DNA of 62,906 nt from a virus (IMGVR_UViG_3300020183_000075:1-62906), one strand, 5' to 3'. Numbered from the stretch's first letter, positions 13,926 through 59,174 are shown. A program made the numbers and translations. Notes: generated from the sequence alone by a model not told the origin.

Positions 13926-14441
13926 TTAAATAATGGTTTCAACAGTGTATCCGCTGAATGCAAACTCAGCCAGTGCAAGAGCTTCGGTTGACTCTGGCAA
14001 AGTAGAACTGAAAACAATTCCAGATAAACTTACCGGAAATAAGTGTTTAAATATAACTTTAAATTTTGGTTTGTATGAACTATTTGTTAAAAACAACATA
14101 GCATCTGATGTTGTTTTTCCTAAAGTTGTAGTTGTTCCTTTATACGGTAGAGCAGAGCATGACGAATCTAAATTACCATTTCCTTTCATCCAATTCCATA
14201 TTTCTAACCAATTATTGAGATTTTCATCCACTTTAAAAGATATCTGTAAATTTTCAAATCTAAAGTTTCCAACAGGAATATTTACAGGCAGACCAAACGT
14301 TGTTGGTTGTATATCGGTGCCCATAACAATACCTGGCAAGTTTGCTGCTTGGCAAAAATAAGTTATATTGGGCACACGATCTAAAACAAACTCAAAATAG
14401 TTTGTTAGTAATGGATTATGAGAACCGGTATATCCTGCCAT
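13926..14441 (-). CDS. 3: Tail completion / sheath stabiliser (gp3)
   Basis: FEFVLDRVPNITYFCQAANLPGI, FKVDENLNNWLEIWNW, SDA.L, LFPVSLSG. Confidence 0.92.
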   Translation of the reverse strand: MAGYTGSHNPLLTNYFEFVLDRVPNITYFCQAANLPGIVMGTDIQPTTFGLPVNIPVGNFRFENLQISFKVDENLNNWLEIWNWMKGNGNLDSSCSALPYKGTTTTLGKTTSDAMLFLTNSSYKPKFKVIFKHLFPVSLSGIVFSSTLPESTEALALAEFAFSGYTVETII

Positions 14442-14446
14442 ACAAG

Positions 14447-14454
14447 TATTTATG
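14447..14454 (-). promoter_or_regulatory. T4-type late promoter (CATAAATA) upstream of gp3
   Basis: One mismatch to TATAAATA, just after the gp23 terminator. Confidence 0.6.
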
Positions 14455-14490
14455 AAAACGAAAAGGGCTCCCTTTTTAGGGGGAGCCCTT
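14455..14490 (-). terminator. Rho-independent terminator after gp23
   Basis: Stem AAGGGCTCCC/GGGAGCCCTT followed by TTCGTTTT on the minus strand. Confidence 0.88.
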
Positions 14491-22009: not shown

Positions 22010-22603
22010 TTAAGTTCCACTAGCAGTGGTTATTGGCGCGTTATCATATGTATAATGAGAATACATGAGAGTTACAGCAAACGAACCTAAAACGTTATCT
22101 TGACTCATATCAAGAACCAGAGGCCCAACAGCAATAGGCCAAACATTAAATAAACTAAAAGTTCTTCCTGGAAGTGGATTATCACAGTTTACTTCATATT
22201 GTTTTACGACCCAAGATTTACTCCACAATGAGCTGGGATTGGTAGAACCATCTGGAAATGTTGTTTTATTTCCACCATGAGAATTGATTCTATCATGCCA
22301 ATCGTGGAACATTTTGTGTAAATTTTCTGGATCGGTTTGACCCCCCGCATGATCGTCTAATATTGTGATTTCCCATGGTTGATATGTACGATCACCGTGA
22401 TATGTCACGGTTCTTCCTCTATAATTTATTGCTATGGGGCCAACCGAAGCTTCTGGCAGTGTTGCACTTCTAATATGGAATGGACTTATTTTATTTGCAT
22501 TATCGGGAGCACCGGGTTTTATTGATCCTTCAACAACAAAGCGATTTAAGCGAGTGCCTCCCTTAAATCCGTTAATGAAATCGTTTATCGACTGATTAGC
22601 CAT
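22010..22603 (-). CDS. 19: Tail tube protein (gp19)
   Basis: GGTRLNRFVV, ATLP, YRGR...GDRTYQPWEITILDD, NVWP..VG. Confidence 0.93.
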   Translation of the reverse strand: MANQSINDFINGFKGGTRLNRFVVEGSIKPGAPDNANKISPFHIRSATLPEASVGPIAINYRGRTVTYHGDRTYQPWEITILDDHAGGQTDPENLHKMFHDWHDRINSHGGNKTTFPDGSTNPSSLWSKSWVVKQYEVNCDNPLPGRTFSLFNVWPIAVGPLVLDMSQDNVLGSFAVTLMYSHYTYDNAPITTASGT

Positions 22604-22619: not shown

Positions 22620-23768
22620 TTAGATTATACTGACAGTAAATACAGTTTCTCCATCAACATCATTTATTGCATTGAGTATGATATTTTCTGCATATACAGG
22701 AACTCTTAACGAAACATTAATAACTAGTTTTCCTTGATTTATTGTTGCGGTTGTGTTGTTAGTTTCATCGCAAGTAATACTGTAACTTCCACCACCAGCA
22801 CTAGAAAGCACATATATGTCTTTTAAGAATGAATCTACATTTCTTGAAAGGGTTTCACGTGTTGCTTGGTTGTTGCTCTGATATAAGTATTGTTTCAGTA
22901 TAGTTTTTAGGTTTCTCTTGATGTAGTTAAGTAGAACAACTACGTTGAGTTTATCTAACACGCTATTTGAATTATTTTTATATGTCTTATTTCCTAACAA
23001 ATACGATCCAAATCCAGAGTATTGACGTACAGGATTTATGTTATTTTGTTTAAGATAAGTGGATTCTAAATCACTAAATGTTTGAGTTAAAGATATTACA
23101 TTTTTAATTGCTTTAGTTGGACCTATGCCTGCAATTATTGGAAAAAAATCAAAAGAAGACACATTAGAATTGTAAGCCATCACACCAGCAATATCTGCAC
23201 TACAATTCAGAGTTGTGTATGAGCTAGGCCAAGTAGAATATATTGACTTGATATCGATTTGTTTTCTTCCACCAATAAAAGAAATGTATTCCGAACTGGC
23301 TAAAGTTACACCAAAATCTTCTTCTTCAGAATCGTAAAGAGAATCGATTCCTGTAAGATTGCTTTTGTTACCAATCAAAGCAACACAATCTTGTCGAGAG
23401 TTAGCAATGTTTGCAGCTGCGCCTGCTGAATATGTGTTGCCGCAATCAAAAACTACATCCAAATCAGAAATTAAACTGGTGTTGTGTAGTGGAGTAGATG
23501 TAAGACTATAACTAGTATACGAACCCGTGGATCCAGTACCACCAACATAGCAAGTTCCATAACCATAATCTAAGAATTGATATACAGATAACCACTCATT
23601 TTTCCAAGATCCGGTAGGCCCAGAACTGAAATTTTTTGTATTTAATCTAGAAATCCAATCAGTTTTACTGGTAATAGACATCAATCCCTGTTCTATTTCG
23701 GCAGTAACGCCTAGAGTGGGTATCAAGCCATTGGTAGATAATGTTCCAGCTTTAAAGTTATAGGCCAT
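22620..23768 (-). CDS. 18: Tail sheath protein (gp18), unusually short and divergent
   Basis: Lies between gp17 and gp19; SRQDCVALI, L...NINPVR, LLGNKT, LDKLNV..L, Y.ITCDETNNT, P..AE.I.L sheath C-domain motifs. Confidence 0.85.
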   Translation of the reverse strand: MAYNFKAGTLSTNGLIPTLGVTAEIEQGLMSITSKTDWISRLNTKNFSSGPTGSWKNEWLSVYQFLDYGYGTCYVGGTGSTGSYTSYSLTSTPLHNTSLISDLDVVFDCGNTYSAGAAANIANSRQDCVALIGNKSNLTGIDSLYDSEEEDFGVTLASSEYISFIGGRKQIDIKSIYSTWPSSYTTLNCSADIAGVMAYNSNVSSFDFFPIIAGIGPTKAIKNVISLTQTFSDLESTYLKQNNINPVRQYSGFGSYLLGNKTYKNNSNSVLDKLNVVVLLNYIKRNLKTILKQYLYQSNNQATRETLSRNVDSFLKDIYVLSSAGGGSYSITCDETNNTTATINQGKLVINVSLRVPVYAENIILNAINDVDGETVFTVSII

Positions 23769-25895: not shown

Positions 25896-26567
25896 TTATC
25901 CTGTAATACCAAACGTTATTCCATCTATTAACAATTCTCCAATACCTTCGAAATTTGTTATTTTGTATTCTGTGGCTTCTTTTCCATAAACATATGATTT
26001 AGCATTAAAAATATACGAACTTATTATCGATCTTCTGCTATTAAAATCGCCTTCATATTCTTGTATCAGATTTGTCTGCATAAGAGTAATAGGAATATCT
26101 ACTTTTCTATGCAAATCTGTTAGATTCATTGTTATCACAAATTCTGGACTAAAATAAGGCAATATTTGTTCCATTATTTGTAAATTTTCATCGATATTTC
26201 TAGTATATGCGTATAAACCAAATGTAAAATTATAAGGAACTTCAGAGTATGAAGCAGAACCTGTTAAGCCTGTTGTGTTGTTTATTTTTCGTTTTAATTT
26301 GTTTATGTGTCTAACAGGATCGTATGTGATGTTTGTTATCTCAAATGCAAGTTGAGGAATGCTTAATTCAACTCTAGTAAGATCACTAATAGAGCTTGGG
26401 AGAATTAAACGCTTAACAAATTTTTCTTTAGGAGAATACGTTAAAGGAACTAAAATGTCGTGATTTTCTCCCGTAGAAGTTTTCTGCATTACATGAAAAT
26501 TATTAAATAACGAACCAAAAGCAATAACAAGCTTTCGTATTGATTCGTTTTTATAATACGTAAACAT
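25896..26567 (-). CDS. 15: Tail terminator / sheath stabiliser (gp15)
   Basis: IRKLVIAFGSLFNN, VPLTYSPKEKF, VPYN, QIMEQILPYFSPE. Confidence 0.93.
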   Translation of the reverse strand: MFTYYKNESIRKLVIAFGSLFNNFHVMQKTSTGENHDILVPLTYSPKEKFVKRLILPSSISDLTRVELSIPQLAFEITNITYDPVRHINKLKRKINNTTGLTGSASYSEVPYNFTFGLYAYTRNIDENLQIMEQILPYFSPEFVITMNLTDLHRKVDIPITLMQTNLIQEYEGDFNSRRSIISSYIFNAKSYVYGKEATEYKITNFEGIGELLIDGITFGITG

Positions 26568-30368: not shown

Positions 30369-30369
30369 T

Positions 30370-33300
30370 TTAGCAATCTGGTAAAGTGTTGCAATCAGTA
30401 GTGGTAGAGCAATCCATTAACACGCACTGATTGTTTCCATTTTCGTCTGTTATCAATTTATATTTATTAACTCTTGGACTGGGCAAAGTTAAAGATATTG
30501 GAGTTCTAGGAACCGATACTAATTTTGTTTTTTCTACAGTTCTGAAAGAGCCATCGACAGTATCTATCAGAGAAAATATTACAGTTGCGTATATATTTAC
30601 ATTTGTGGTATTACTGTATCCGGTTGTAGGAACTTTATTGAAGAATATAAGAGGATTATCTGTCGATACAATGGTATGTACACCTGCACCATCATTAAAA
30701 GAACTGGTTGGTTCTGTGCTCCAATTTATTATGAACCCGTCGTATTCATACCAGTAATTTACTTGATAAGCGTCTAATTTAAAATTAGTGCCAGCAATAT
30801 AGTATTCAAATCCATTATCTGTCACAGGAACGCATTGTGGATTAGAACCATTACAATCGGTTGTTACGGTTGCAGAAAAATATCCCAGTTGATAATCTGT
30901 AATTATATTTGTAGAAAAATCAATTTCTGGTATTTTTGAATTTGGGTCTTTATATTTTTTAACTATTCTGATGGGAGCATTTCTGACCGTAGAACTACAT
31001 CCATCTGCACTCCAATTATAAAATGGAATATCTTCTCCGTCAGTATAATAGACTACAAATTCGTTGCTCTGTAGTGATGCGGTCGGGAGAATAATTGGAG
31101 TGCCACTTATTGCTTTTTCTATTTTGAAACGAGTTCGATCTTCACCATCACATGCGCGCATAGTCAAAGATGTAGGATCAGAAGGATCGCTCGGTTGGCC
31201 ATTCATGTAATAAAAGTATTCGTTTGTTTTTTCTACAGCAGGGACATCGCCGTATATTCTTGGTGTTAATACAGTATTACCGGATCCATCATCTGCTCTT
31301 TCTATGGTTATAACACGATATTGTGTTGGAGATGGAGATATAGAACAATCAATATTAGCACCTGCTCCTGTGTTTGGTTTAAATGGAGATCCATTTTCTC
31401 CAAAACAAACAGAAGTACATTCTTTATTGGTGCACATCATTACAGAACCATCACAGTCTTGGCAGAACATGGGATACCAGAATATCTGATTTAATTGTGC
31501 TTTAACAGTTAAATATTCTTGCTCGGTAGAATACCAGTTTAAAGTGTCTTTTAGATCCCAGCTGTAAATAGTATTAAGAGAACCGCACTCTAATATTTGT
31601 TCAGTAATTCTATCTAAAATTAATTTTCTATCTGTTGAGCCCGGAATTGGTTCAGTATCAGATAGTTTTATTTCTCTAATACTGTCAATAGAATAACGAG
31701 GATCTCGGTCATACTTACAACCACTAGGTACACATCTTTTATTAGCACTTACCGAGCAACCATACGATACGTTTGTGGTATTGATAATATCAACCAAGCA
31801 GTTTTGTTTTGTTACATCTATTAGACTTGTGCCGGGTATACAGTATGTTTTAAATACTAATGCATACTTTGTTCTTTCAAATGTTCTGACACGACATACT
31901 CCAGCTTGTTTGGGATCTGCAAAACTACCTTCACATATTCCGCTGTTAGAATAACTTGTGTAGATTACAAAATATCTAACATCGGAACCGGGTTCGGAAA
32001 ATTGTAATACAGTATCATTAATTTTATTGTCGTCTTTTGCCGGACAACAAGTAGCCAACTCTGCTGGTGTTATAAATGTAACACCTGCATTTTCATTTTC
32101 AGCTGTAAAAAGTACTGCTTTTTCGTTTGTGATATTATTACTATTTTGTATAAAATTAGTAATATTTGTAATTATATTTCTTTGATCTATTTCTGATGTT
32201 ACACCAGCCGATACTAGATCTCCATATAGCCCAGAAACATTTTCAAAAGATACATTATGCCAATATGGATAATCTTCTTGCCCTGCTAGCGATACTCCTT
32301 TACAACCGATCTGGAAAGAACCGTCATTCATTAGAATATCTAATAAATTATTACAAGATCCTTCACAATTATTCACGCCAGACCCTATATTCCATTCTGA
32401 ATGTTTGCATGTTACAGCAACCGTAGGATCTGCACTGAGATCGTTTTCTTTAGTTATCCTGCAGTCATTATTGTCTTCAACATCTGACGTGGTTATGCAA
32501 ACAGGAGTAACCACATAATCAGAGCCCACCTTCTGCAGATCAACACAGAAATCACAAGACCCGTATTGAGACTGAACCGGATAAAAATAATTAACACCAG
32601 TATTTGTGTCTTGTGTATAACAATCACGACAATATCGTTTAGCTAACCATTCTGATTTTATCAGTTTACTGTTTGGTCTTCCAGCACAAGATGAGATATA
32701 TCTGGGTTTCATCTTATATGTTAAAGAAGTTTTTACCACGCCAGAACTGTCTTTCATCTGTATAACAAAATTGGCTGCTTCATATATTGTGTCTGGTCCA
32801 ATATTATCACTATTATTATCAAATTGTAGTGCAAATGTTAGACCGCTAGTTCCTGTTGGATTTGTTAATGTATATTCTCCTGAAAGATTGTCATAATTTC
32901 CTGATATATCTCTAGTAAAGAAAAAACCAATTTGAAAACCTGTAGCTGAATCCGTATATACTCTTTGTTGTTTAATAACAACATTAGAATCATTAGTTTT
33001 TGCTCTAAATATGGCTACAGTTCCGGGATTTCCTACACTTACACTATTGTCAGGAATTACATTATCAGTAATTACTGAAGGCTGTACAGTCTCTAAAATA
33101 TAGTATAAATTACAAGGTCCACGCAAATCACAAGACTGAGTATTCCACACACCGCCAGCAGCACTGCAAACTGTTTCTGATACAATATTGTGACAAGTTC
33201 CATCAATACAGCAAGAACCAACTCTGCAAGAATTTTCACAACTTATCAGTGCGTTAAATACACCAGCACGAACATCTTCACAAAATTCTCTGGTAACATA

Positions 33301-34410: not shown

Positions 34411-35508
34411 TTATGGTGTACAAGTGCTACCAGTACAAATAGCATTTCTAGTAAAAGTTCCACCTAAACGTTTACAATCAAAATTACTCAAATTAGCACA
34501 ATTTCCATTTGGAAAACAACATTTTCCTATATCTCTACAATTTCCAGTTCTTCGTTCTGCACAAGAAATAGGAGAGAATGTCCCATTAAGACTATTTTTA
34601 CACAATGTAGAATTAATATAATCTATACAACGAGGTCTACCATCACCATCACAATAACAACAAGAACCATATTGTTGTGCACTGAATGGTGTATTCTGAT
34701 CCCATGTATAAGTATTTTCTGTTCTAAAAATTTTTCTAGGACCTGTTGTTCCGCCTATGGTCGTATTCTGTGAAAATATTGTTACTTGATTTGTTCTATC
34801 TAAAAATACAGAATCTTCATCGTATTGAGAATAAGCAATATCTGCGGTTGTGCCAGTAACAAAAGTGTTTATGGTATCTGTTGAACTATTGATATTTTTA
34901 TTTGTTGTTAGACTACTTTGGGCAAACTGAGATATTACTGCTTTTGTTATGTGTATTGTTGTTAGACCTACAGTGTTTTCTTCGTATTTAAATAATGATG
35001 CGGCAAAAGTTTCAGCAGTATTACCGGCACTTCTTAATGCTGCACCATAATCACCTAAAGCGTATCCGCCAGCTAAAGTTACACCAGATACGATAATATC
35101 ATTTCCAGAATACGATGCAGTTAAACCACCTAAGAATTTTACAGGTTTAAACGATGCAGTTAAACCAAATACTGGACCTTTAATTTCAAAACTGGTATTT
35201 AAAACTGTTCCTGTAGAACCAGAAACAGTATAATACTCGTCTTGATTAGTAGAAGTAAATTCACTAAAAGTATTTCCAGACAAACCATTTAAAAATATTT
35301 CTGAAGAATCTGTTAGGTATACAGTGACACCATCAGTATTGGTGTATAAAATAAATGATATACCTAAACCAGTTGCACCTGTTGCCCCCGTTAAACCATC
35401 CGGACCAGTACTACCTCTAGGGCCGGTACTTCCTGTAGGACCACGATATGCCGAAGTATCGACAAATAAATTATTTACTACAAATATACTAGTTCCTACT
35501 TGGGTCAT
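34411..35508 (-). CDS. Collagen-like fibre protein with two C-terminal GxCC repeats
   Basis: GPTGSTGPRGSTGPDGLTGATGATG; GSCCYC...C and GKCCFPNGNC...C. Confidence 0.7.
   Translation of the reverse strand: MTQVGTSIFVVNNLFVDTSAYRGPTGSTGPRGSTGPDGLTGATGATGLGISFILYTNTDGVTVYLTDSSEIFLNGLSGNTFSEFTSTNQDEYYTVSGSTGTVLNTSFEIKGPVFGLTASFKPVKFLGGLTASYSGNDIIVSGVTLAGGYALGDYGAALRSAGNTAETFAASLFKYEENTVGLTTIHITKAVISQFAQSSLTTNKNINSSTDTINTFVTGTTADIAYSQYDEDSVFLDRTNQVTIFSQNTTIGGTTGPRKIFRTENTYTWDQNTPFSAQQYGSCCYCDGDGRPRCIDYINSTLCKNSLNGTFSPISCAERRTGNCRDIGKCCFPNGNCANLSNFDCKRLGGTFTRNAICTGSTCTP
35112..35167. repeat. 17-nt exact direct repeat encoding GLTAS twice
   Basis: acgatgcagttaaacca at 35112-35128 and 35151-35167. 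Confidence 0.85.
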
Positions 35509-48503: not shown

Positions 48504-50528
48504 TTATTGTTCCTTTGCCACACAAACTCCGGCATTTTCTACGTCAAATATGAACATAGGACCAGTTTCTTGTTTTGGTGGAAATCCGCATGGGAATGAT
48601 GTAGCGGGTATTAAAAGATCTACCATTTTTGAACTTATAACATCTATTTTTACAACACGTCCTACATATTCGTCACGAATTGAACTTTCTTCTGTCCCAG
48701 ATTTAACTCTAAATTGACCAACTGGTTGCATAACAATTCCATCAATAGTTCCTTCGCTTTTAGAAACTTGGCTAGAAGCACCAGGAGATACTAAAGACGT
48801 CTGAAGATCTCTACTTTCTTCTTTATTTGCTGGTAATGTTGTATTTAAAAACTCATTTAAATTATAAGCTCTTCCTTTAATCCCCCATGGAACTGTAACT
48901 ATACTAAACGGATAATCTTTATCTGCTACAACATTTTGAACTGCTCGTTGATTTCTGAATCCTCTTCCTCTGTCTCTTTTATTCCAAAATTCTATTTCTT
49001 TAAAATAATAACTGTAAATACCACCGGCACCATTATCGTATATCTTATCTGCTCTTAGTAATATTGCATAAAAGCTGGTTGGTTGGTTTCGCTCTCCTAA
49101 TATACTTTGACGATAAAATTTCCATTTTGTATCTTGTCTTTTAAGATAAGCGTAATAGGTTCTATTTTTAGACAAAGGCCATTTAATCTTTTCGTATATC
49201 TTCTTTAAACAAGATGCTGGTAGTTCGCAAAAATCAAATTGAGCTTGCCAATAATTTCCTTCGATTCGTTCTACTTCGGAAGTAATACCACCAATTTTTT
49301 CACCTTCAAAGTGTTTGTATGAAGAATCCCAGTAGTTCCACCACGGTCTGTTAGATTGGCCATAAGCGTCCTGAAAATATCCGTAATATGAATCTGATAT
49401 TCTGTTTGGTGAATATACCAATGAAACATCCCTGACATCTATAGGTGGATAAGAAGATATTTTCTTAAACCCGGTATCTGTGTAATAATCATAAACAACT
49501 TGTGTTCTTTTTAGAGACTCTGATGTATCAACAACAAATTTATACGGATTAATCCAATCAGGTTTAACACGAACATATTCTCCGCTGAAAGCACCATTAT
49601 TAACAAGTTTTGCTACAGGAGTTTCTGTTATTATTTGAAGGTCCACTATTGCATTAATATCATTCTCGTTTAAAGAAGGAACATATGTGGCTTTAATAGG
49701 CTTTTCCAACAAAGATTCCACACATTTAAAATTAAATTTATCTAGATCTTCCCAGAAGAAAAAATTTACCGCATTTGGATTTTTAGAATAACAAGCGTAT
49801 TCACAAACATAGTTCATCATTTGGCCGATTTTTGCAGGAACACCAATTTTACTCCAAGGATAATGACTGGGATTCAATTTAAACCAAACATCATTAAATG
49901 TTGCGTCTGCATCTAGTTGCTTGGGAGCATCTTCTCCTTGATTCGAACCAAATCCAAACTCTTGAAATACGTATTGAACAAAACCGGGACCATTTATAGA
50001 GCCACACTTTTCTAAATTTGGTACTTGAGAAGTATAAGATGATGCCGAATTAGATCCAGAACTACTAGATATTCTTCCTATAAAAGACTTCAACAACATG
50101 GTATCAAAGTTTTTATAGATTAATTGATCTGAAGTAAACTTTATAGCGACAGGAATAGTGTTACCGAATGGACCTAAAATTTGTTTGGAAACACTGTTAG
50201 CTTCAGATACGATTTCTACTATTTTGAAACGACAAGTTTTAGTTGCTCCTTGAGCTGTATATTTTATCTGTACTATATCGTATGATGTAAAATTTAGTTG
50301 TTCTACTATGAAAGCAGGATCAAAGAAATATAGAGTTCCCGAGACAGACTCTGCAAACATGTCTTCATCTAAAATTAAAGAATCAAAAATTATAGGTTCG
50401 TTAGCATCTCTAGGAAAAACCGTAAAAGCAACAAACTGTGATGCAGTATTGGGATCATTGTTAATAAGAGTTATCTCTTGTATTTCAATGTTCGGTATAC
50501 TTATTTGGTCATTAGGAAGAATACTCAT
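48504..50528 (-). CDS. Baseplate hub gp27-like, N-terminal part with C-terminal extension
   Basis: LILDEDMFAESVSGTLYFFD and FFFWEDLDKFNFKCVESLL hub motifs; follows gp53. Confidence 0.7.
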   Translation of the reverse strand: MSILPNDQISIPNIEIQEITLINNDPNTASQFVAFTVFPRDANEPIIFDSLILDEDMFAESVSGTLYFFDPAFIVEQLNFTSYDIVQIKYTAQGATKTCRFKIVEIVSEANSVSKQILGPFGNTIPVAIKFTSDQLIYKNFDTMLLKSFIGRISSSSGSNSASSYTSQVPNLEKCGSINGPGFVQYVFQEFGFGSNQGEDAPKQLDADATFNDVWFKLNPSHYPWSKIGVPAKIGQMMNYVCEYACYSKNPNAVNFFFWEDLDKFNFKCVESLLEKPIKATYVPSLNENDINAIVDLQIITETPVAKLVNNGAFSGEYVRVKPDWINPYKFVVDTSESLKRTQVVYDYYTDTGFKKISSYPPIDVRDVSLVYSPNRISDSYYGYFQDAYGQSNRPWWNYWDSSYKHFEGEKIGGITSEVERIEGNYWQAQFDFCELPASCLKKIYEKIKWPLSKNRTYYAYLKRQDTKWKFYRQSILGERNQPTSFYAILLRADKIYDNGAGGIYSYYFKEIEFWNKRDRGRGFRNQRAVQNVVADKDYPFSIVTVPWGIKGRAYNLNEFLNTTLPANKEESRDLQTSLVSPGASSQVSKSEGTIDGIVMQPVGQFRVKSGTEESSIRDEYVGRVVKIDVISSKMVDLLIPATSFPCGFPPKQETGPMFIFDVENAGVCVAKEQ

Positions 50529-53500
50529 AGATCAGTTATCCTGATATCAATCTTGTTTTCTGTTTGTACTAAATTCTTAAATTGTTTTTCAAATTCGTAT
50601 AGTTTATTATTATTTAAGTATTTAATTTCTGTTACTTGTATTTGTGCTTGTTGTTGTTTGTATGGTGTTATTAGTAGATCGTTACCACTTGCAGTTTGAT
50701 ATGCGTTTATAAATGCAGTTTTCCAGACAGAACCATTATTTGCGGTAGGATCTTGTATATTACCAGCGCCGTCAACAATATATTGAACACTATTCATATA
50801 TGAATCTACACTTAGAAGTTTATGTTGAATATTTTTTATAATACTACCATCTCTGATTACAGATACATTAGTTCCGGATGGATCGGTTAATTGTATTGGA
50901 GATTCATTTGGTGCAGAATAACTTTTTACATAAATTCTTTTAAATATATCATCGACCCTATCCACTCGACCCAGATACTTTTTATTTTCTCCGGTCTCGA
51001 ATAATACTAGATGATTTCCGCCCGATTCTACAGTATCAAACATTCCTTCTATGGAAGTAAGGTTTACCGTCAAAGTAGAACCAGAACAACCACCAGAATC
51101 TGTAATAATTTTTCCTGCCGTAAATAATTTTCCTGTTGTGTCTATAGCTGCAGAGTGTGCATCACCCGCAGAAATATCAATATAAGTTCCTGCTGGTATA
51201 TTTTGTTTATTATCTAGAGTAGAGCCTAAGAAATAAACAGTTCCTAATTTATCCAATAAAATACTATGATCTTTTCCTGATTTAATCTTTGTTATATTTT
51301 TAATGTCATAGAAATTAAATTCTGTTTTAACTTCTGTTATAAGATTGTTAAAATAATTTAATAAACTAATTAATTTAGTAGTATTGGGTTTAGAGGAATT
51401 AAATACAGAATAGTCTTCATTTATTAATTCTGTTTGCAATACAGACCAATCTATAGCAGTAAAACCAATATCTGCATTTTTATTATTCCAATAATATGTA
51501 CCTCCTAATATTCCATAATAATACCACTGATCTAGCGCTTTTCTTTCAAAAGTATTTCCTAAAATAGCCAGAATACTATTATCAAAAATTGAAATATTAT
51601 TTATAGATGTATTATAATTATTTTCTGATGTTTTTGATTCATCTATTGAATTTTTAAATATTTGATTATATACTAGAATTCCTGTTGCACCTTGTACTAA
51701 AACTGGACCTTTAGTTACAACATCATATGTAAATCCGACATTAATATCAAAATTATGACTAAAATTACTAAGTATTACTTTATTGATATTTTTTCCAGTA
51801 ATATTTTCGTAATCTTTTAATATTTTTTTATTATTTTTCCATATTATTGGTGTATTTGATATTTCTTCTGGTAGTATAAATTTACTAATATTATTATCTA
51901 CGATAAAATCATAATTCACATCTTGTAAAAACTGCTTCCAGCGATCATAATATTTTGTATAAACAGCAGAAGTGATTCCTATAGAATTTAAATAATAATT
52001 TTTAGATGCGAGTTCTTCTGAATAAGGTTTATATTCACGATAAGATATATCAAAACCATTTATTGGTAAGTAAGAATTTACTCCTTGTGTAATATAAGGA
52101 GTCCAAGATTCATCTTTACTATATTCTCGATAATTAATTAAAGTATTTCCAGTTTGCCAACTTAATTTGTGTGTAAATGTATAACCACCAAATGCTCCAC
52201 TAAATCCTATATTTGTATAATTTGGTAAAAGCGATCCGACATTAAAACCAACAGCAATAGATTCTTTATTTCCTGTTAAATCAAATATTGCCTGTTTTGC
52301 TAAAGTATAGCCTAAATTATAAAAGTTTTTTATGTAATATAGTGTAGTATTAAAATCATCATCCGTCACCGGAGCAGAATAAAAATTATAAGATAAAACA
52401 TTTTGATATGTTACTCCGTCTCCAGCTAAAGATAACCCTGATGAATTTAACGTATAACCCAAATATTTAATATTTGCAGGTTCATTAAACCAGCGTAAAC
52501 TGTTTTGATCATTATCACTGATATTTAATATTAATTTTTTTGGATATTCTCCTATTTGATTGTAATATTCTTGTATTTTTGTTTTTAAATGGTCTTTAAA
52601 TAAGCTTTCACCCCAATTACCATCAAAAGTGTAGCCTATTAAATTATCTTTATATTTTTTATTTTTAGGTAGTCTATTAGTTATAGATAAAGGTTTTAAA
52701 TAATCAAATAATTGATTTTGATCTAATCCATTTACATCTTCTGTATTGCCCCAATAAACTACATCTCCGTTATTTTTAACTGCACCAGAACAAGTAGGTG
52801 TTGCAAAAATTGAAGATACTTCTGTTAAATCAGGAGGTACGGAACACTGACCGTGAGTATTGTCACCAAAACAATATACATTTCCACTATTAGTTAGAAT
52901 AACAACATGATCTCCACCACTAACAGCTTGTTTCCAGTCAATATCAAATGGAGTTTGCATTGGTAATTGTTTGACTCTGCCCCAAACATCAAAATAACCA
53001 TCAGCAAAGATGACACCAAAATTATTAACTCCACAAAGAACCTTAATTATAGGTTCTATTTTAGTGTTAATTCTGTCCCATGTAGCCTGAGACATGTATT
53101 GTTTATCAGTTTCAACACCTAAAATTTCTATTGTGTTATTTTTTCTTGCAGCAATAACAGCATCAAACCCAGCAGCTATATCAGTTACTCTTGTATAACT
53201 TCCAGTTTCGTCTCGTGATAATCTTCCTAAAACCGTATCACTATATTTACCTGGGCCCATTGGAATATGATCTACATTTTTAGTTGTATCTTTTCTTAAT
53301 AAAAATAGATCTCTCCAACCAGCAGATATCTTTTCTACTACTGAATTTGGTTGTTTATACTCATTTGGTATTTTTGTAGAAATATCAAAATAGACAGGAC
53401 TATTTGGTGTTATGGGTGTATCAAAAGGATTAAACCCCCATAGTCTAGTTTCATACTGACCGGTAAAATTTTCTATTCCTCCAGAGCAATTTGCTTTTGC

Positions 53501-54700
53501 TGAAATAGAATCATTAGAATATGAATAAGAAGAATCTATGGGAAGTGGTAAAGACGAATCAATTATAGTACCATTTCCTAATTGACCATTAAAATTTCTT
53601 CCCCAACTATAAAGCTCATTAACTCCAGGAACTATTTCTTTTAATCCTAAACAGTGAGATCTACCACAAGATATTGATTTCCAATTATTATCAGAACTAA
53701 CTTTATTTAAAAATGGTTGAATTGAAGCATTATAAATTCTACCATTTGGTCCTTCTATTCTAGTGCCATTACCGTAGATGCCTGAAAAATTGTCCCCCCA
53801 AGCATATAAATGGCCTCCAGATATACCAAGACAAGATATTTCGCTAGCAGATATTGAAGACCAGGAATTGGGTCCAGGTATTGGTGTATAAGTATTATAC
53901 AATTTTCCAAAAGAAACTGAATCAGAATCCGTAATTAAGTTTTCTGTCATGTGCGAGAGAAAAATTAGTTCAGTAGACTGTGTTAATCCTTCATTTCCTC
54001 TGCCTAAAACTCCTGCTGTATTTGGCCCCCACGAATATAAATAACCATTTCTTATACCCAACGCGTAATTTTTTCCTGCACTTATGTGTGACCAACCATT
54101 TAAATTGTGAACTCTTTTTGGATTAATAAAGATACCCATATTTCCACTAAAAGGTCCTTGGAGATTACAGGCTTCTGTTACTCTGTCTCCATCAATAAGC
54201 AAACGACCTACTACACATCCCCACGCATAAAGAAATCCGTTTCTAATACCATAAGAAAAGAGATCTCCAGCTTCTACTTTTTCCCAACCAGTAAGACCTC
54301 CAACTTTAGTGGGAATATGTGTATAATCTAAACTTCCATATAATGTATTCCCTATAAAATTTACATTAGTTTTAAACTGATTATATTCGCTGTCAGAAGA
54401 AAAAAGATCATTTAAAAAATCTGATCTTCTTTTAGAAATCGCCGTCAAGCCTAATTGACCAGTTTCATTACTACCCCATGCATACAAGTTATCACCACAT
54501 ATTCCTAAAGAATGATTAATACCAGCAGAAATCTCAGTCCAATTTCCACTATTTGAAATTAATTTAGGAGTCGATTTAAACTGTACACTTGTAGTAATAC
54601 CCAATTGACCCCAATCATTTTTACCCCAAGAATATAAATTTCCATTATTTATTAATAATCCGTGGTTTTGTCCAATAGAAATTTTATATACGTTATTCAT
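50525..54700 (-). CDS. RCC1/BLIP-II repeat protein ending in a gp53-like C-terminus
   Basis: Many ISAG.NHSLG...LYAWG.N..GQLG repeats; C-terminal EIKYLNNNKLYEFEKQFKNLV. Confidence 0.75.
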   Translation of the reverse strand: MNNVYKISIGQNHGLLINNGNLYSWGKNDWGQLGITTSVQFKSTPKLISNSGNWTEISAGINHSLGICGDNLYAWGSNETGQLGLTAISKRRSDFLNDLFSSDSEYNQFKTNVNFIGNTLYGSLDYTHIPTKVGGLTGWEKVEAGDLFSYGIRNGFLYAWGCVVGRLLIDGDRVTEACNLQGPFSGNMGIFINPKRVHNLNGWSHISAGKNYALGIRNGYLYSWGPNTAGVLGRGNEGLTQSTELIFLSHMTENLITDSDSVSFGKLYNTYTPIPGPNSWSSISASEISCLGISGGHLYAWGDNFSGIYGNGTRIEGPNGRIYNASIQPFLNKVSSDNNWKSISCGRSHCLGLKEIVPGVNELYSWGRNFNGQLGNGTIIDSSLPLPIDSSYSYSNDSISAKANCSGGIENFTGQYETRLWGFNPFDTPITPNSPVYFDISTKIPNEYKQPNSVVEKISAGWRDLFLLRKDTTKNVDHIPMGPGKYSDTVLGRLSRDETGSYTRVTDIAAGFDAVIAARKNNTIEILGVETDKQYMSQATWDRINTKIEPIIKVLCGVNNFGVIFADGYFDVWGRVKQLPMQTPFDIDWKQAVSGGDHVVILTNSGNVYCFGDNTHGQCSVPPDLTEVSSIFATPTCSGAVKNNGDVVYWGNTEDVNGLDQNQLFDYLKPLSITNRLPKNKKYKDNLIGYTFDGNWGESLFKDHLKTKIQEYYNQIGEYPKKLILNISDNDQNSLRWFNEPANIKYLGYTLNSSGLSLAGDGVTYQNVLSYNFYSAPVTDDDFNTTLYYIKNFYNLGYTLAKQAIFDLTGNKESIAVGFNVGSLLPNYTNIGFSGAFGGYTFTHKLSWQTGNTLINYREYSKDESWTPYITQGVNSYLPINGFDISYREYKPYSEELASKNYYLNSIGITSAVYTKYYDRWKQFLQDVNYDFIVDNNISKFILPEEISNTPIIWKNNKKILKDYENITGKNINKVILSNFSHNFDINVGFTYDVVTKGPVLVQGATGILVYNQIFKNSIDESKTSENNYNTSINNISIFDNSILAILGNTFERKALDQWYYYGILGGTYYWNNKNADIGFTAIDWSVLQTELINEDYSVFNSSKPNTTKLISLLNYFNNLITEVKTEFNFYDIKNITKIKSGKDHSILLDKLGTVYFLGSTLDNKQNIPAGTYIDISAGDAHSAAIDTTGKLFTAGKIITDSGGCSGSTLTVNLTSIEGMFDTVESGGNHLVLFETGENKKYLGRVDRVDDIFKRIYVKSYSAPNESPIQLTDPSGTNVSVIRDGSIIKNIQHKLLSVDSYMNSVQYIVDGAGNIQDPTANNGSVWKTAFINAYQTASGNDLLITPYKQQQAQIQVTEIKYLNNNKLYEFEKQFKNLVQTENKIDIRITDL

Positions 54701-54704: not shown

Positions 54705-57700
54705 TTATGTTTCTAAAATTACTGTAGTTGGTATAGAAGATCCCAAAATATTTATTGTTCCGCTACCAGTAGTACCAGATCCCCATAAAAATAATCTACC
54801 GTCTTGTTTTAACAAGGCAGTAAAATATTGACCACAATCGATTATCTTATTTGCACTTCCATCATTCACTTCAGCCGGAACACTACATTGCGCATAATCA
54901 TTATTTCCCCAACAAATAATATTACCATTTATATCTTCTGCACAATTATGATCATAACCCACAGACAGTTTGTTTGCTATTCCTAAAGTCGAAGGAACAT
55001 CAAAAATTTTATAAACACCATTTTCATTCGTTGTAGTTATTTGAGGCATTCCCCAACACTCTACTAATCCATTTTCTTTTATTCCACAACAATGGGTATA
55101 AAAACAATCTATAAAACTATAGGTCAATCCTGGTGGCGAAGTCAATGAGCCATCTAATCCCCAGATTTTTAGTGATCCTTCGCTTGTCACCGGTATACCA
55201 TATGCCATAGCACCACCTACGGCACCATCACCTATAAAATCATTATATGAGAATGGTTCCGAACTAAAGCTAGAGGTAATAAAATTATTAAATTTAGTCG
55301 TATTATATGGGACTTTATCTGCATTTATAAGGGTTATTTTTTTATTTTTTTGTAATAAAACCATAAATCCATTACCAAAAATAATATCTTCTATTTCATC
55401 TTTAACTGGGCCCAAAGTTCCAGCATCGAATCTATTAAGGTCTCCAGTTCCTCTTAAAATATATCCTATATTATTTTTTTTACCAGTTTCTTTATTTGCA
55501 GCTAAAAATGAAAATCCATATTTTTCACCAGGAAATACATTTTCTAAAGTTAGACCATTACCGTATAAGAAATCATCTACTGTATAACTACTAGGAATCA
55601 AAGATCTATAATTAAATTCATTGGGTTTAAAAGCCCCATCTATATAGTGTTTAGATTTTCCTCCATAAGAATTAAATTTTTGTATATACACATAATAATC
55701 AAAAAAAGTAAATGGTTGTCCAAAAGTAGAAGACCACGCTAGCAAAGACATATAATCATATGGTGGTGGTATGTGTATATTTAATATAAAGTATGGATAT
55801 AGTATTTGTTTTGTTGTGGAATTATATAAAAGCAGAGCATCTTCAAACCCCGAGTATATTAATGGTTTAAATCCTAATTCAACACCATTTAAAAAGTGTG
55901 CGAATCGATATATCATTGATGGAAAATCTAGAAGAGGAGTAGTATTAGCATGTCCTACTATTTTTATTAAACTATTATCATTTTTTGTAACATATAATTG
56001 ATTACCATTTCCAACTATATCCACAACGCCTGTTTTAATTTTTTCACTAACGTCTGTGCGTTTATCAAGCCTGTATAATAAATTCAATATTTCATTATCA
56101 GTATACTTCTGTGTTGTTTGTTCGTGAGCCCATCCATATAAAGTTATTCCACCGGCGTTTTTAATGAGATTTCCAGCAGTTCCACCTAAATGTGCCCACA
56201 ATACTTCATTACTTTTTGTTAAAACAAAAATTGGAGAGGTTTCATCGGGTTTAAATTGTTTTCCGTCTCCAAACGGATTCAGTGATTGTATAACAGAATA
56301 AGGACCAACTACTTTTGCTGCATTTGAAACAGTAAATCCTGCAAACATATTTTCAAATGTATCAATAGGACCTAAATTTCCAATGAATTCCGTCCAATAA
56401 TTACCATGAATAGACAGTGTATTATTTCCATGAATTGCTACAACATTATCCCAATTAACTGTTATATCAGATGCAGTAATTCCTGGGATAGTGTAATAAT
56501 CTCCAGTAAAACCAAACTTAATATCTGTTATATAAGTTATACCCCATATTTTAATTGTATTATCTTTAGCAAGACCTGCAGCCCAATAAGAATAACCATC
56601 TGCATTTTCTATTTTTATAAAAGAAATTCCGCTGGGAGGATTTACCGCTGCAGGATAAGATTTAACAAAATCAGAAAAAGCATAAAAATCGGCAGCATTT
56701 CCATATATTTCGCTTTCGTTAGGATCGTGGATTCGATATGGAGTTCCGTCTTTTGTGATAACCCAAGCAGATCTTCCAGATTGACTAGATATATATGATA
56801 TACCCTGAGCATTAATCGTGCTTAAAATTCCTGGTAATTCTTTATCATAAGTATAAGTTATTCCATTTATACCAACACAGGTTAAAGTTTGTTGCAATCT
56901 TAATTCGGTGGAAGGATCACCCAGATACTTAAGAACGTCTGTAGTATATTTATTTTGATAATTAATTTCTCTATTACAAGAAAATATGTCTAGTGTATCA
57001 TCTTCTTTTAATAATAAAACTATTTCACCATCTGTAATAATTTGTATATTTTTTATACCTTCTCCATTTTTAAGACGTAAATTATTACTAAATATATCAC
57101 CCAAAGAAGACGATTTAACGATATACGTAACTCCATTTACATTATTTTGAGCCAGTGGTGCAACTGGAGTATTGTACGTAGAATTGGACGTATTTACTTC
57201 AGATTTAAATTGAGGATAAAATGCAGGAACACATGTAACAGCTGGGTTATAAAAATCTACCGGTCCAGTTAAACCTTGTACATATACTGCAGTAAAAACC
57301 ATTTTATTTAATGCAGTTATACCAATATAATTTCTATCAAATAAACCAGCAAATCCCTGACTTATTTTTTTAGGTTTTAATATTTTATTATAATAAAAAG
57401 AGTAATCAAAATTATTGTTAGAAAATTCATCAAATCCATATAAGGCAAATATTTTAGGATTATTTAATATAAATCCTTCTCTACTATTAGAATTATGATC
57501 GGTAAAACCAAATAAAATTCTGTCATCAGAGTTAGAACCAAATATTTTTATATAATTAGATCTATAAACCTCTTCTGGATTTTGTGTTGGTGAAGTAAAA
57601 GGTGGAATATCTTTTATAGAAACTTGTAAGACATTTTTATTATACTGTTTAACTATTTTATTTTGTGTGTCCGTAAATGGATATATCGGATTTGTTTGTG

Positions 57701-58754
57701 GTAGTGCTCCTAGTTTTGTTAATTCTTTAGAATAAAAAGTATTTTGTCTTATCTGTTCAAAATAACCAGTAGAACCAAATCCCACAACAACGCCATTTAC
57801 AGCTCCTGTTGCTGCCCCTAAGCAATAATCGTCAGCACAAGAAACATCAGAAAAATATTGTATTGTTGCATTGGTTGAAACTATAGGTCCAAAAATACTA
57901 ATAGTATTGTCATTTTTAATTCCAATACCGGCAAAAGTTTGGCCACTAGTCCAAGAACTCTTTTTAATATCAGACTGACCGGTGAAAGTAAAATTAGCAC
58001 AATTACCAAAACAAACAAAATCACCAGTAGAAGTAACTGCAATTATTTTATCGTGAGTTGTATCTATATGCTTATATCCTCCACTAGGAGAATTATATAA
58101 TCTACCATTTAAATTAAAACCAGAACTTTCTAATCCTATATCTTCACCCCAAGCCCAAATATAACCTAGATCATCTAAACATGCAGTAAAATTACGACCA
58201 CACGATATTTGAATTATATTATTTCTATTTAAAAAATTATCAGGTATATCTGACTGACCAAAATGTGGATAACCACAGGAATTTAGTGCGGAAACAATAC
58301 CGGCACCATAAGTTTTTAATTCTAATGGTCCTGCTCCGGTTTCAAAAATAATAATATCGTCTTGTTGTATACCAGATAAAGATACACCAGAATAAGAATC
58401 TATTTCGTTAGAATTAAAGTATTCTGAATTTGTTGGAAGATAATTACTATTATTTGCAAATTGAAAAATCTTAGTATCAAAATCTGTAGAATTTTGTGTT
58501 AGTTGCGTTGAGTTTGATCTTGCCCATTCTTTAAATGGATTTTTTATATTATTTAATGCCAGATTAACCCAAAATAATTTAGGATCATTATATAAATTAT
58601 TCGATAGTTGGTCAGGCCTTTCAAAATTAATATTTTTGGTTGTGCTTATATCCGGAGAATTTGTAGTATCTACTTTTATAGATTTAAATATATCGGTTAA
58701 CTCTAAAGTTTGACCATTTAAGTAATAATTAATTTTAGAAAAATTTTCAAACAT
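54705..58754 (-). CDS. 53: Baseplate wedge gp53 N-terminal (LysM-like) domain fused to RCC1-like repeats
   Basis: F.NF.KINY...TDIFK...ERPDQLSNNLYNDPKLFWV.LALNNIKNPFKEW; QISCGRNFTACLD..G.IWAWG and CWGNNDYAQCSVP repeats. Confidence 0.82.
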   Translation of the reverse strand: MFENFSKINYYLNGQTLELTDIFKSIKVDTTNSPDISTTKNINFERPDQLSNNLYNDPKLFWVNLALNNIKNPFKEWARSNSTQLTQNSTDFDTKIFQFANNSNYLPTNSEYFNSNEIDSYSGVSLSGIQQDDIIIFETGAGPLELKTYGAGIVSALNSCGYPHFGQSDIPDNFLNRNNIIQISCGRNFTACLDDLGYIWAWGEDIGLESSGFNLNGRLYNSPSGGYKHIDTTHDKIIAVTSTGDFVCFGNCANFTFTGQSDIKKSSWTSGQTFAGIGIKNDNTISIFGPIVSTNATIQYFSDVSCADDYCLGAATGAVNGVVVGFGSTGYFEQIRQNTFYSKELTKLGALPQTNPIYPFTDTQNKIVKQYNKNVLQVSIKDIPPFTSPTQNPEEVYRSNYIKIFGSNSDDRILFGFTDHNSNSREGFILNNPKIFALYGFDEFSNNNFDYSFYYNKILKPKKISQGFAGLFDRNYIGITALNKMVFTAVYVQGLTGPVDFYNPAVTCVPAFYPQFKSEVNTSNSTYNTPVAPLAQNNVNGVTYIVKSSSLGDIFSNNLRLKNGEGIKNIQIITDGEIVLLLKEDDTLDIFSCNREINYQNKYTTDVLKYLGDPSTELRLQQTLTCVGINGITYTYDKELPGILSTINAQGISYISSQSGRSAWVITKDGTPYRIHDPNESEIYGNAADFYAFSDFVKSYPAAVNPPSGISFIKIENADGYSYWAAGLAKDNTIKIWGITYITDIKFGFTGDYYTIPGITASDITVNWDNVVAIHGNNTLSIHGNYWTEFIGNLGPIDTFENMFAGFTVSNAAKVVGPYSVIQSLNPFGDGKQFKPDETSPIFVLTKSNEVLWAHLGGTAGNLIKNAGGITLYGWAHEQTTQKYTDNEILNLLYRLDKRTDVSEKIKTGVVDIVGNGNQLYVTKNDNSLIKIVGHANTTPLLDFPSMIYRFAHFLNGVELGFKPLIYSGFEDALLLYNSTTKQILYPYFILNIHIPPPYDYMSLLAWSSTFGQPFTFFDYYVYIQKFNSYGGKSKHYIDGAFKPNEFNYRSLIPSSYTVDDFLYGNGLTLENVFPGEKYGFSFLAANKETGKKNNIGYILRGTGDLNRFDAGTLGPVKDEIEDIIFGNGFMVLLQKNKKITLINADKVPYNTTKFNNFITSSFSSEPFSYNDFIGDGAVGGAMAYGIPVTSEGSLKIWGLDGSLTSPPGLTYSFIDCFYTHCCGIKENGLVECWGMPQITTTNENGVYKIFDVPSTLGIANKLSVGYDHNCAEDINGNIICWGNNDYAQCSVPAEVNDGSANKIIDCGQYFTALLKQDGRLFLWGSGTTGSGTINILGSSIPTTVILET

Positions 58755-58757
58755 ATA

Positions 58758-59174
58758 TTAAAATGGATTTATAGGATTTATAGGGGCAGTACTGTTAAAA
58801 AACACATTTAAAGAAGAATTGAGTTGATTTATTTTTTCATTGGCAAATGTCAATCCTAGTGTATTTGTATAATATAATGATCTAAAATAATTAATTGTGT
58901 TAGGATTTAATTCAGGTAGATTGTTATTATTAAAATAATTATAATTAAATGAAGTTACTCCCAAATAATTATAACCAGGTCCTGTTGGTCCAAAAAATAA
59001 ATTTACATAATCTAAAACTATTTGCTTTGTTAAACTGATCTGACCAGGTGCTAATGCATTTTTTTGAATTTTTTGACGAAAATAATCGTTGAATTCTTGA
59101 AAATATTTTTTAGAAATAAAATCTGAAGTATTTGAAGAAAGTAAAGGATTTATTATTGGTAAATATGTGTTCAT
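58758..59174 (-). CDS. Asn-rich hypothetical protein, probably virion-associated
   Basis: Lies between gp48 and gp53; 3 of its 5 Gly are in G-x-T. Confidence 0.55.
   Translation of the reverse strand: MNTYLPIINPLLSSNTSDFISKKYFQEFNDYFRQKIQKNALAPGQISLTKQIVLDYVNLFFGPTGPGYNYLGVTSFNYNYFNNNNLPELNPNTINYFRSLYYTNTLGLTFANEKINQLNSSLNVFFNSTAPINPINPF

Follow-up and report, generated by a model that had tools for sequence, protein, structure and literature searches.

Introduction

The system discussed here has its closest described parallel on the spore surface of Clostridioides difficile, where SgtA, a glycosyltransferase of 358 amino acids (aa) that consists of a GT-A domain and four tetratricopeptide repeats (TPRs) and is encoded directly upstream of bclA3, puts O-linked N-acetylglucosamine (O-GlcNAc) on the threonines of the GPT triplets in the collagen-like protein BclA3, serine being accepted in vitro (as reported in PMC7157674). 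Does a comparable pair of enzyme and substrate exist among phages? We consider this question for a 62.9-kb viral DNA, IMGVR_UViG_3300020183_000075:1-62906 (hereinafter, the window, which is the entire assembly), whose virion proteins are replete with the tripeptide G-x-T and one end of which lies inside an island of genes for glycan synthesis. Judging by its gene content, the window is a fragment of the genome of an uncultured, low-GC (31-40%) T4-like myovirus, with a CheckV completeness of 35%.

In relatives of this phage, the island ends with a gene for a protein that consists of a GT-A domain followed by TPRs (hereinafter, the GT-A+TPR enzyme). This protein is like SgtA in the order of the domains (the lengths are 358-401 aa) and in that, within the phage clade, its gene lies upstream of Gly-X-Thr-rich collagen-like genes, which is a likeness of domain order and gene position as described, not of aligned sequences. 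Unlike in C. difficile, the candidate substrate is a phage tail fibre instead of a spore surface protein, and the enzyme gene lies outside the window; SgtA employs UDP-GlcNAc, whereas the donor-sugar genes of the phages are of the GDP-6-deoxy-4-amino-hexose type and are accompanied by methyltransferases and by GT10 and GT11 transferases; and the threonine glycan of BclA3 is known, whereas the phage system is known from its genes alone. With these differences taken into account, the pairing of a GT-A+TPR enzyme with Gly-X-Thr fibres is plausibly a novel form of the SgtA/BclA3 type of system.

The succession of a GT-A domain and TPRs or helical repeats is shared by the phage enzyme also with GmaR, the O-GlcNAc transferase of Listeria flagellin, and with SunS and ThuS. 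The latter two are peptide S-/O-glycosyltransferases, and all three act on protein or peptide acceptors, although these acceptors are different proteins from those considered here. For GmaR, a glycosyltransferase domain followed by TPRs and the glycosylation of flagellin are described in PMC9638930.

With regard to phages, two papers that cite Freeman et al. 2023 (PMC12619734, PMC12801897) relate that phage glycosyltransferases modify mycobacteriophage virions, the glycans reportedly being located at the C-terminal ends of the subunits that build the capsid and the tail tube; going by these citing papers, mycobacteriophages are as yet the only phages in which glycosylation of the virion by phage enzymes has been demonstrated. 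Unlike in the mycobacteriophages as presented there, no G-x-T excess is seen in the capsid here, and the candidate targets are the fibres. Marine T4-like phages, namely, the cyanomyoviruses P-SSM2, S-SCSM1 and S-SCSM2R, possess islands in which GT10, GT11 and GT2 transferases are combined with nucleoside diphosphate-sugar epimerases and dehydratases (as described in PMC12801897), and the island of the present clade resembles these, whereas the pairing of a GT-A+TPR enzyme with collagen-like proteins is not among the features described in that paper. Another cyanophage, P-SSM4, has neither a GT-A+TPR gene nor a G-x-T excess. Our literature searches retrieved no description of a G-x-T sequon or of a phage pairing of a GT-A+TPR enzyme with collagen-like proteins, which is weak evidence that these are unpublished.

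Here we report that the G-x-T excess is real, resides in the proteins and marks a clade of T4-like phages that are as yet uncultured. The observation is stronger and broader than could have been known to the preliminary description of the window, which had interpreted G-x-T, along with G-x-S and G-x-C, as a candidate sequon of a virion glycosylation system. The explanation that we favour involves two layers, that is, collagen-like or Gly-Thr-rich segments of fibre proteins, and G-Φ-T-(A/Φ) units that stand alone, in the fibres as well as in the tail and neck; as a whole, we consider this explanation to be evenly poised between right and wrong.

The G-x-T excess and its robustness

By our own judgement of the Pfam and PHROG matches, the open reading frames (ORFs) were divided into a virion set (32 ORFs, 14,498 aa) and a non-virion set (25 ORFs, 6,210 aa). 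Counts are given as observed/expected, with the expectation computed for each protein from its own composition. In the virion set, G-x-T occurs 183 times, with 100.4 expected (z 8.2), which is the first rank among the 400 gap-1 residue pairs. Not one of 2000 composition-preserving whole-protein shuffles (mean 101.1, standard deviation 9.3, maximum 131), nor any of 500 shuffles inside 30-aa blocks (mean 102.0), reaches this count, and 22 of the 32 virion proteins are above expectation. Thus, the excess survives correction for glycine and threonine content (183 versus 101), and the originally suggested comparison of virion and cytoplasmic proteins sets the two apart: in the non-virion set, the count of 23/17.5 is reached by 200 of 2000 shuffles. 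With the block shuffles averaging as stated, local Gly/Thr-rich composition is ruled out as the source.

Other spacings in the virion ORFs are at or below expectation (GT 83/100.7, GxxT 85/100.2, GxxxT 104/100.0). In the frame test with GGNNNNAC, the count is 183/100.3 in frame 0, while frames 1 and 2 yield 11/10.4 and 13/17.8, respectively; since the excess is confined to the reading frame, the G-x-T signal is a feature of the proteins. Glycine codon use at the G-x-T sites matches the gene-wide use, which, together with the restriction to frame 0, rules out a DNA-level motif. Could the signal simply reflect collagen-like repeats? Glycine is found at position -3 or +3 in 65 of the 183 sites; masking runs of at least three G-x-x triplets leaves 160/93.6, and masking every GxxGxx leaves 114/72.6 with the first rank retained. 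Collagen runs are thus ruled out as the sole source, in agreement with the earlier observation of G-x-T outside collagen stretches.

The purported related forms do not share this behaviour. For G-x-S, there is no enrichment in the virion set (83/93.7) or in the relatives (0.87-1.01x), which speaks against serine as a replacement for threonine. The G-x-C count (38/18.0) is due to four fibre proteins in which the module G-[SA]-C-C-x-x-G-x-C recurs; as part of this separate cysteine-rich module, G-x-C is ruled out as a variant of the sequon. G-x-V is mildly enriched (90/67.4, 1.34x), and N-x-T is at expectation (91/90.5), so that an N-x-T sequon was dropped from consideration. After strict masking, the values for the relatives are 1.39-1.47x for G-x-T, 1.48x for G-x-V and 0.87-0.96x for G-x-S. 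The isolated sites conform to the pattern G-[I/V/L/Y]-T-[A (3.5x)/L/F/Y]-[S/G/E/D]-[N/D/P], which is the same in the window and in the relatives.

Is the excess a generic trait of T4-like virion proteins? Each control comprised the annotated structural genes of one 50-kb stretch, with genes 34-37 for the long fibres of T4, the head, sheath and neck of Melnitz, and part of the P-SSM4 baseplate falling outside these stretches. There is no excess in T4 (27 proteins, 50/55.2, rank 282 of 400), P-SSM4 (13 proteins, 114/104.8, rank 92 of 400) or Melnitz (30 proteins, 130/146.7, rank 357 of 400), and a generic trait is ruled out by these three one-stretch controls. A homologue of the GT-A+TPR enzyme was looked for in the same three phages and not found. 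The suggested co-occurrence of motif and transferases holds to the extent that these phages lack both the enzyme and the excess, but the window does not itself contain the enzyme gene.

IMG/VR contains relatives with sheath identity of 64-93% and a further clade at ~30%. Around gp6, 39 of 43 loci from uncultured relatives are above the G-x-T expectation. When pooled, these loci yield 297/190.4 (close) and 1518/932.7 (distant), in both cases the first rank, with z-scores that are overstated because the pooled homologues are non-independent and internally repeated. In two relatives, G001 (118 kb) and G002 (108 kb), the core tail proteins show no more than a weak enrichment, with summed counts of 13/9.5 and 18/11.0, respectively.

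Several compositional features of the virion ORFs stand apart from the motif or accompany it. Among the threonines of G-x-T, the codon ACT accounts for 99 of 183 (54%), compared with 458 of 1183 (39%) for all threonines of the virion genes. Another pair, H-x-M, occurs far more often than expected both in the window (8/2.1) and in loci L021-L063 (close loci 16/3.5, distant loci 56/15.4), and Y-x-W is over-represented as well; these are probably conserved motifs of one protein family. The cysteine-rich module is found in four consecutive fibre genes (28707-38318) that encode 13-48 cysteines each, in forms such as GSCCYSGGC, GACCKADGSC and GKCCFPNGNC, and might form a mini-domain, disulfide-rich or metal-binding, whose family is unknown.

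Distribution of the sites over the virion

Most of the excess resides in six large fibre proteins, with the remaining 26 virion proteins contributing 66/44.6. The tail and neck core (gp3, gp19, gp18, gp15, gp14, gp13) is enriched (23/8.3, p = 2e-5), but neither the head proteins, capsid and portal included (8/9.7), nor the baseplate-core proteins (15/14.3) are, so that of the virion parts originally named as carriers of the motif, fibres, tail and neck stand and the baseplate core does not. All the genes with coordinates in the following three paragraphs are located on the minus strand.

In the window, the first of the two layers is represented by short N-terminal stalks encoded in three consecutive fibre genes, whereas in the relatives there are hundreds of triplets in arrays. 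The three proteins are a 1342-aa fibre protein with Cys-rich modules (30370..34398; 16 G-x-T versus 11.1 expected), in which the collagen-like run is N-terminal (nt 34249-34341); a 365-aa fibre protein (34411..35508; 19 versus 6.3), with a collagen-like Gly-X-Thr run at aa 23-49 (nt 35362-35442); and a 937-aa fibre protein (35505..38318; 28 versus 11.0) that contains clusters such as GVTgGLTsGFTg and a run at aa 21-38 (nt 38205-38258). These Gly-X-Thr runs, of 6-10 triplets, are candidate substrates, if short ones. In runs of at least five triplets, position Y is occupied by threonine in 50% of the 22 triplets of the window, 63% of 325 triplets in G001 and 73% of 140 triplets in G002; this range of 50-73% compares with the mean of 8.9% for viral collagen-like domains in Table 4 of PMC3368898, which gives 48% for Gram-positive bacteria.

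The remaining G-x-T-rich proteins of the fibre and baseplate region include an 807-aa tail fibre protein with mainly isolated G-Φ-T units (39442..41865; 17 versus 8.6), a 1391-aa RCC1-repeat protein (50525..54700; 20 versus 9.2) and a 1349-aa protein that also has RCC1 repeats and whose N-terminus is gp53-like (54705..58754; 17 versus 9.6). The motif inventory previously drawn up for the middle of the 1391-aa protein is accurate (GYT x4, GVT, GIT, GFT x2, GAT, GGT) save for GNT, which occurs three times rather than twice. A 138-aa ORF of unknown family (58758..59174), without matches in the Pfam and PHROG scans, indeed has three G-x-T (0.4 expected), at three of its six, rather than five, glycines. 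The two giants of the baseplate region, of 1391 and 1349 aa, bear RCC1 beta-propeller repeats, and the second opens with a gp53-like baseplate wedge domain.

Among the tail and neck proteins, the gp3-like tail terminator (13926..14441; 4 versus 1.2) begins with MAGYTG, as had been noted, and the N-terminal G[YF]T is kept only among close relatives. In the gp19-like tail tube (22010..22603; 5 versus 1.4), which is enriched although enclosed by the sheath, relatives at ~70-78% identity have just 2-3 sites left, with T swapped for V, A or S. The short, 382-aa tail sheath (22620..23768) contains the eight copies reported for it, with 2.8 expected; sheaths at 64-93% identity have 8-9 sites compared with about 3.3 expected, mostly in the same alignment columns, and three sites persist in the clade at ~30% identity, whereas T4 and P-SSM4 gp18 have other residues at these positions. 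The gp15-like tail sheath stabiliser (25896..26567; 3 versus 1.1) does end with DGITFGITG; its C-terminal G-Φ-T repeats are clade-wide and absent in T4 and P-SSM4 gp15, and its internal site aligns with GAT of T4 gp15. For the sheath, convergent gain of the motif, as once proposed, is contradicted by the mostly conserved positions of the sites. The sheath profile matches T4 gp18 only over residues 387-651, and the 382-aa protein apparently lacks the outer insertion domains found in T4 gp18.

In the AlphaFold2 models, the isolated units seem to be placed where short beta strands begin. Within blocks of the 807-aa fibre with a mean predicted local distance difference test (pLDDT) score of at least 50, there are five G-x-T sites, four of which lie in or at beta strands: site 488-490 is inside a strand; in sites 558-560, 587-589 and 634-636, glycine is in a loop and threonine is the first or second strand residue; and site 282-284 is in coil. 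In the sheath, T375 starts the C-terminal strand (pLDDT about 56-59). The remaining 12 fibre and 7 sheath sites fall in unreliable regions of the models.

The glycan island and the GT-A+TPR enzyme

In this clade, an island of ~15 kb adjoins regA; the window includes its first five genes, all on the minus strand, and the contig stops within the island. The first gene after regA, which is conserved in this place in G001 and G002, encodes a candidate GT-A nucleotide-sugar transferase of 212 aa (2648..3286) without a Pfam match. It is followed by genes for a GT10-like glycosyltransferase (1809..2672; PF00852 6e-06, 26.4 bits versus a cut-off of 23.9), with homologues at 40-42% identity after regA in G001 and G002; a GT11, fucosyltransferase-like glycosyltransferase (1087..1812; PF01531 4e-33, phrog_2644 9e-65); an FkbM-family methyltransferase (458..1102; PF05050 1.5e-19, TIGR01444 1.4e-25); and a candidate GT-A-type sugar transferase (3..461), which is cut by the contig end after the N-terminal 153 of ~194 aa and has no match in the Pfam scan. 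The ESM Atlas gives 0.98 to PF03407/GT34-like clusters for the 2648..3286 product and also for a full-length relative of the truncated protein (L079:6583-7164), and we treat both matches as leads only. Hence, of the four glycosyltransferases and one FkbM methyltransferase first assigned to the window, the GT11, GT10-like and FkbM genes are backed by Pfam, and the other two amount to ESM Atlas leads.

The rest of the island can be followed in the relatives. Contig L079, with 94.4% nucleotide identity over window positions 1-2505, continues for 8 kb and adds a second FkbM, a GNAT, a DegT aminotransferase, a GDP-mannose 4,6-dehydratase (GMD) and a partial GT2; contig L160, the GMD of which is identical to that of L079, encodes a complete GT2+TPR protein of 401 aa. 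The island in relatives thus comprises GMD, DegT, a GNAT acetyltransferase, FkbMs, GT10-like, GT11 and GT-A transferases, and the terminal GT-A+TPR gene, which is located immediately upstream of fibre genes rich in G-x-T. The same regA-adjacent island is present in G001 and G002, with GT2(+TPR) at 55-59% identity, and there the next genes encode fibre proteins that contain 65-95 G-x-T apiece (GNTGNT..., GPTGGTGST...). GT11 is found in one of five relative contigs, where absence is uninformative given that these fragments are 19-65% complete.

The nearest relatives of the GT-A+TPR enzyme with solved structures are GmaR (9e-10), SunS (2e-8) and the ThuS-like 7msk (1.8e-4), the similarity being mainly limited to the first ~100-200 residues. 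Its sole NCBIfam match is the SunS family (1e-12), at 47.7 bits, below the cut-off of 350.

Gene neighbourhood of the GT-A+TPR enzyme

In 78 viral loci, the G-x-T count is 2028/1097.8 in the genes downstream of GT-A+TPR, compared with 787/656.7 in the upstream island genes. Of 91 loci with the GT-A+TPR gene, 39 have a collagen-like ORF no further than about 10 kb away, versus 8 of 145 GT11/GMD loci without it (Fisher p = 4e-12), and for Gly-X-Thr collagen-like ORFs, the corresponding fractions are 16 of 91 and 4 of 145. After clustering at 70% identity, a collagen-like neighbour accompanies 14 of 19 GT-A+TPR clusters, against 5 of 57 GT11 and 1 of 13 GMD control clusters. The adjacency of enzyme and putative substrate is thus seen in the relatives, not in the window.

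The first gene downstream of GT-A+TPR usually encodes a ~140-aa protein of the phrog_1084 family, in which (35 unique members) G-x-T stands at 218/87.4, G-x-S at 57/54.4 and G-x-V at 60/52.8. Neither of the window ORFs 42566-42973 and 58758-59174 shows a relation to phrog_1084 by blastp or PHROGs. Outside the clade, the jumbo phage Tunturi_5 encodes a homologue, gp35 (39% identity), 3.7 kb from the tail fibre gene gp29, the product of which has GAT/GPT arrays (79/30.1). Bacterial homologues (77 loci, 36-46% identity) have a Gly-rich or collagen-like neighbour in 23 cases, many of these being PE_PGRS-like; in 8 of the 77 loci, or 6 of 24 clusters at 70% identity, the neighbour is a Gly-X-Thr collagen-like protein. 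These eight loci come from Actinomycetota metagenome-assembled genomes, Acidoferrum, Burkholderiales, Solimonas and one unclassified source.

Members of the phrog_1084 family (e.g. L262:11385-11804) are of unknown function and combine a conserved frame with variable Gly/Thr-rich loops full of G-x-T; they are weakly similar to an L-shaped tail fibre assembly family. Relatives also encode, in the fibre module that follows the island, a tailspike (L162:13096-14556) with a pectate-lyase-like beta helix (Gp49-like, PF22442 1e-26). GT-A+TPR homologues at about 40% identity are common in genomes of non-tuberculous Mycobacterium (L333-L389, together with Actinomycetota), where they often lie beside PE_PGRS-like Gly-rich ORFs, some of which extend into long Gly-X-Thr arrays.

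Putative acceptor sites and possible structural motifs

The scenario that we regard as the most likely would start in the cytoplasm, with the GT-A+TPR enzyme priming the threonines of the collagen-like and Gly-Thr-rich segments with a sugar, in the way SgtA does on BclA3. The other transferases and the methyltransferases would extend the glycan with methylated 6-deoxy-amino sugars, and the resulting glycans would cover the fibres and lend stability to their Gly-X-Thr triple helices. What the island encodes and what lies beside it lead us to infer that the Gly-X-Thr segments of the fibres are probably O-glycosylated. The isolated sites in sheath, tube and terminator, in contrast, would be mainly structural and no part of a general sequon, as suggested by the co-enrichment of G-x-V, the lack of enrichment of G-x-S, the conserved positions and the strand-entry logo. 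Virion glycosylation, as envisaged in the preliminary description, is plausible for the fibres, where the GT-A+TPR gene lies beside Gly-X-Thr genes, and a general G-x-T(/S/C) sequon that would cover sheath, tube and neck proteins, in the manner of N-x-S/T or of the Bacteroidetes D-S/T-A/I/L/V/M/T, is not supported.

A number of facts weigh against this scenario. The GT-A+TPR gene is not in the window, the contig ending inside the island, and its presence in this phage is deduced from near-identical contigs; more generally, everything said about modification derives from the content and neighbourhood of genes. At 50% identity, the viral GT-A+TPR loci form one cluster, so that synteny within a single clade could explain much of the neighbourhood association. 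In two huge-phage records, the 15 kb around the homologue (27-34% identity) include nothing that is G-x-T-rich or collagen-like; a Gly-X-Thr collagen-like neighbour is missing from 69 of the 77 bacterial loci, and many Gly-rich neighbours there are PE_PGRS-like; and some collagen proteins that adjoin GT-A+TPR have little threonine at Y. As for the isolated sites, the folds that these proteins have in common with T4 do not account for the enrichment of the tail and neck core, and to call this enrichment structural is itself an interpretation; the models are of low confidence (pLDDT 48.3 for the sheath, 43.0 for the 807-aa fibre); and the threonine of G-x-T is conserved in 44% of aligned cells compared with 33.5% for other threonines, a modest difference. 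The substitution spectra of the two kinds of threonine are alike (S 10.5% and 12.5%, V 4.4% and 5.2%, respectively) and do not discriminate.

Could G-x-T be purely structural or compositional, simply this lineage's way of constructing trimeric fibres and tail proteins, with the island acting on the host surface (lipopolysaccharide, capsule or S-layer glycan) or elsewhere, and the virion unglycosylated? Much of the evidence on the isolated sites fits in readily: G-x-V is enriched along with G-x-T and G-x-S is not, the logo G-[IVLY]-T-[A/L/F/Y] is followed by turn-forming residues, the sheath positions are conserved and one gp15 site is common to T4, and four of the five fibre sites in model blocks with pLDDT of at least 50 lie in or at strands. 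Furthermore, threonine at Y is common in non-animal collagens regardless of whether glycosylation has been shown (PMC3368898, Table 4), and the usual interpretation of cyanophage GT10/GT11 islands, according to PMC12801897, is that they act on the host surface or cell wall or modify DNA, a point that also counts against our scenario. However, homologous folds in T4, P-SSM4 and Melnitz lack the excess, fibre genes rich in G-x-T are found next to an enzyme of the protein-modifying type much more frequently than next to control glycan loci, and the same pairing recurs in Tunturi_5 and several bacterial lineages; besides, (Gly-Pro-Thr)10 is reported to be a random coil that forms a triple helix only when its threonines are glycosylated (PMC11923368). 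On balance, we consider this possibility unlikely, although it carries real weight. The opposite extreme, in which most G-x-T threonines of sheath, tube, neck, baseplate periphery and fibres carry methylated deoxy-sugar glycans, draws on the enrichment of the tail and neck core, the clade-specific terminal motifs of gp15 (GITFGITG) and gp3 (MAGYTG), the non-collagen G-x-T of phrog_1084 (2.5x expected, with no excess of G-x-V or G-x-S) and the co-occurrence of the GT-A+TPR gene with the enrichment. Yet G-x-S is unenriched although SgtA takes serine in vitro, and G-x-C belongs to an unrelated cysteine module; the sheath-enclosed tube is enriched, and T alternates with V, A and S in its relatives; G001 and G002 carry the enzyme and still have weakly enriched core tail proteins; capsid and portal are unenriched; the sheath sites are conserved rather than gained; and the model sites with pLDDT of at least 50 sit where a loop enters a beta strand. 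Such a general sequon thus strikes us as distinctly improbable.

Another version, which seems to us quite unlikely, if less so than the general sequon, would make G-x-T, in arrays as well as in isolated Gly/Thr-rich loops and termini, the true acceptor motif of the GT-A+TPR O-glycosyltransferase, with tails and fibres of this abundant clade coated by methylated 6-deoxy-amino-sugar glycans and the same enzyme family glycosylating Gly-X-Thr collagen-like proteins in several bacterial phyla. Finally, nothing was found that speaks for an artefact of chance, of local composition or of a DNA-level motif, although homology and internal repetition do raise the z-scores obtained for the pooled relatives: neither whole-protein nor block shuffles ever attain the count, other spacings show no enrichment, the signal is in frame only with normal glycine codon use, and 22 of the 32 virion proteins participate, which leaves an artefact with a practically negligible probability.

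If the fibres of these widespread aquatic phages do carry O-glycans on Gly-X-Thr, the host recognition, stability and resistance to proteases and grazers of this clade would be seen differently, the dominance of threonine at Y in viral and bacterial collagen-like proteins would find an explanation, and a G-x-T excess combined with a GT-A+TPR gene would become a simple metagenomic marker for glycosylated virions. If G-x-T were the acceptor motif of the entire enzyme family, the enzyme-substrate pairing would be widespread and hitherto unrecognised. Even without any glycan, the lineage-specific G-x-T signature is clean and quantifiable and calls for a structural explanation.

Other features of the window

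According to the Pfam and PHROG matches, nearly all the identified genes are on the minus strand, and they fall into four blocks. The replication block includes gp32, regA, the clamp loader (gp44/62), the clamp (gp45), RNase H, gp46/47, gp55, UvsW and UvsY; the head and tail block includes gp3, gp23, the scaffold (gp22), the protease (gp21), the portal (gp20), tube, sheath, terminase (gp16/17), gp15, gp14 and gp13. The fibre and baseplate genes form a long run that includes gp6, gp25 and the two RCC1-repeat giants, and a small plus-strand block contains gp4 and baseplate hub genes. The core T4-type genes are present in conserved order, as in T4-like myoviruses, and the closest cultured phages are cyanomyoviruses, with identity of at most 52% for the portal and at most 29% for gp6.

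Between the prohead protease and scaffold genes, there is a 643-aa ORF (17038-18969) without a match in the Pfam and PHROG scans, which has a counterpart at the equivalent position in relatives (30-43% identity). Three paralogous ORFs (13926-14441, 22010-22603 and 60375-60899) all match the tail-tube family phrog_45 and are probably gp3, gp19 and a gp48/54-like initiator.

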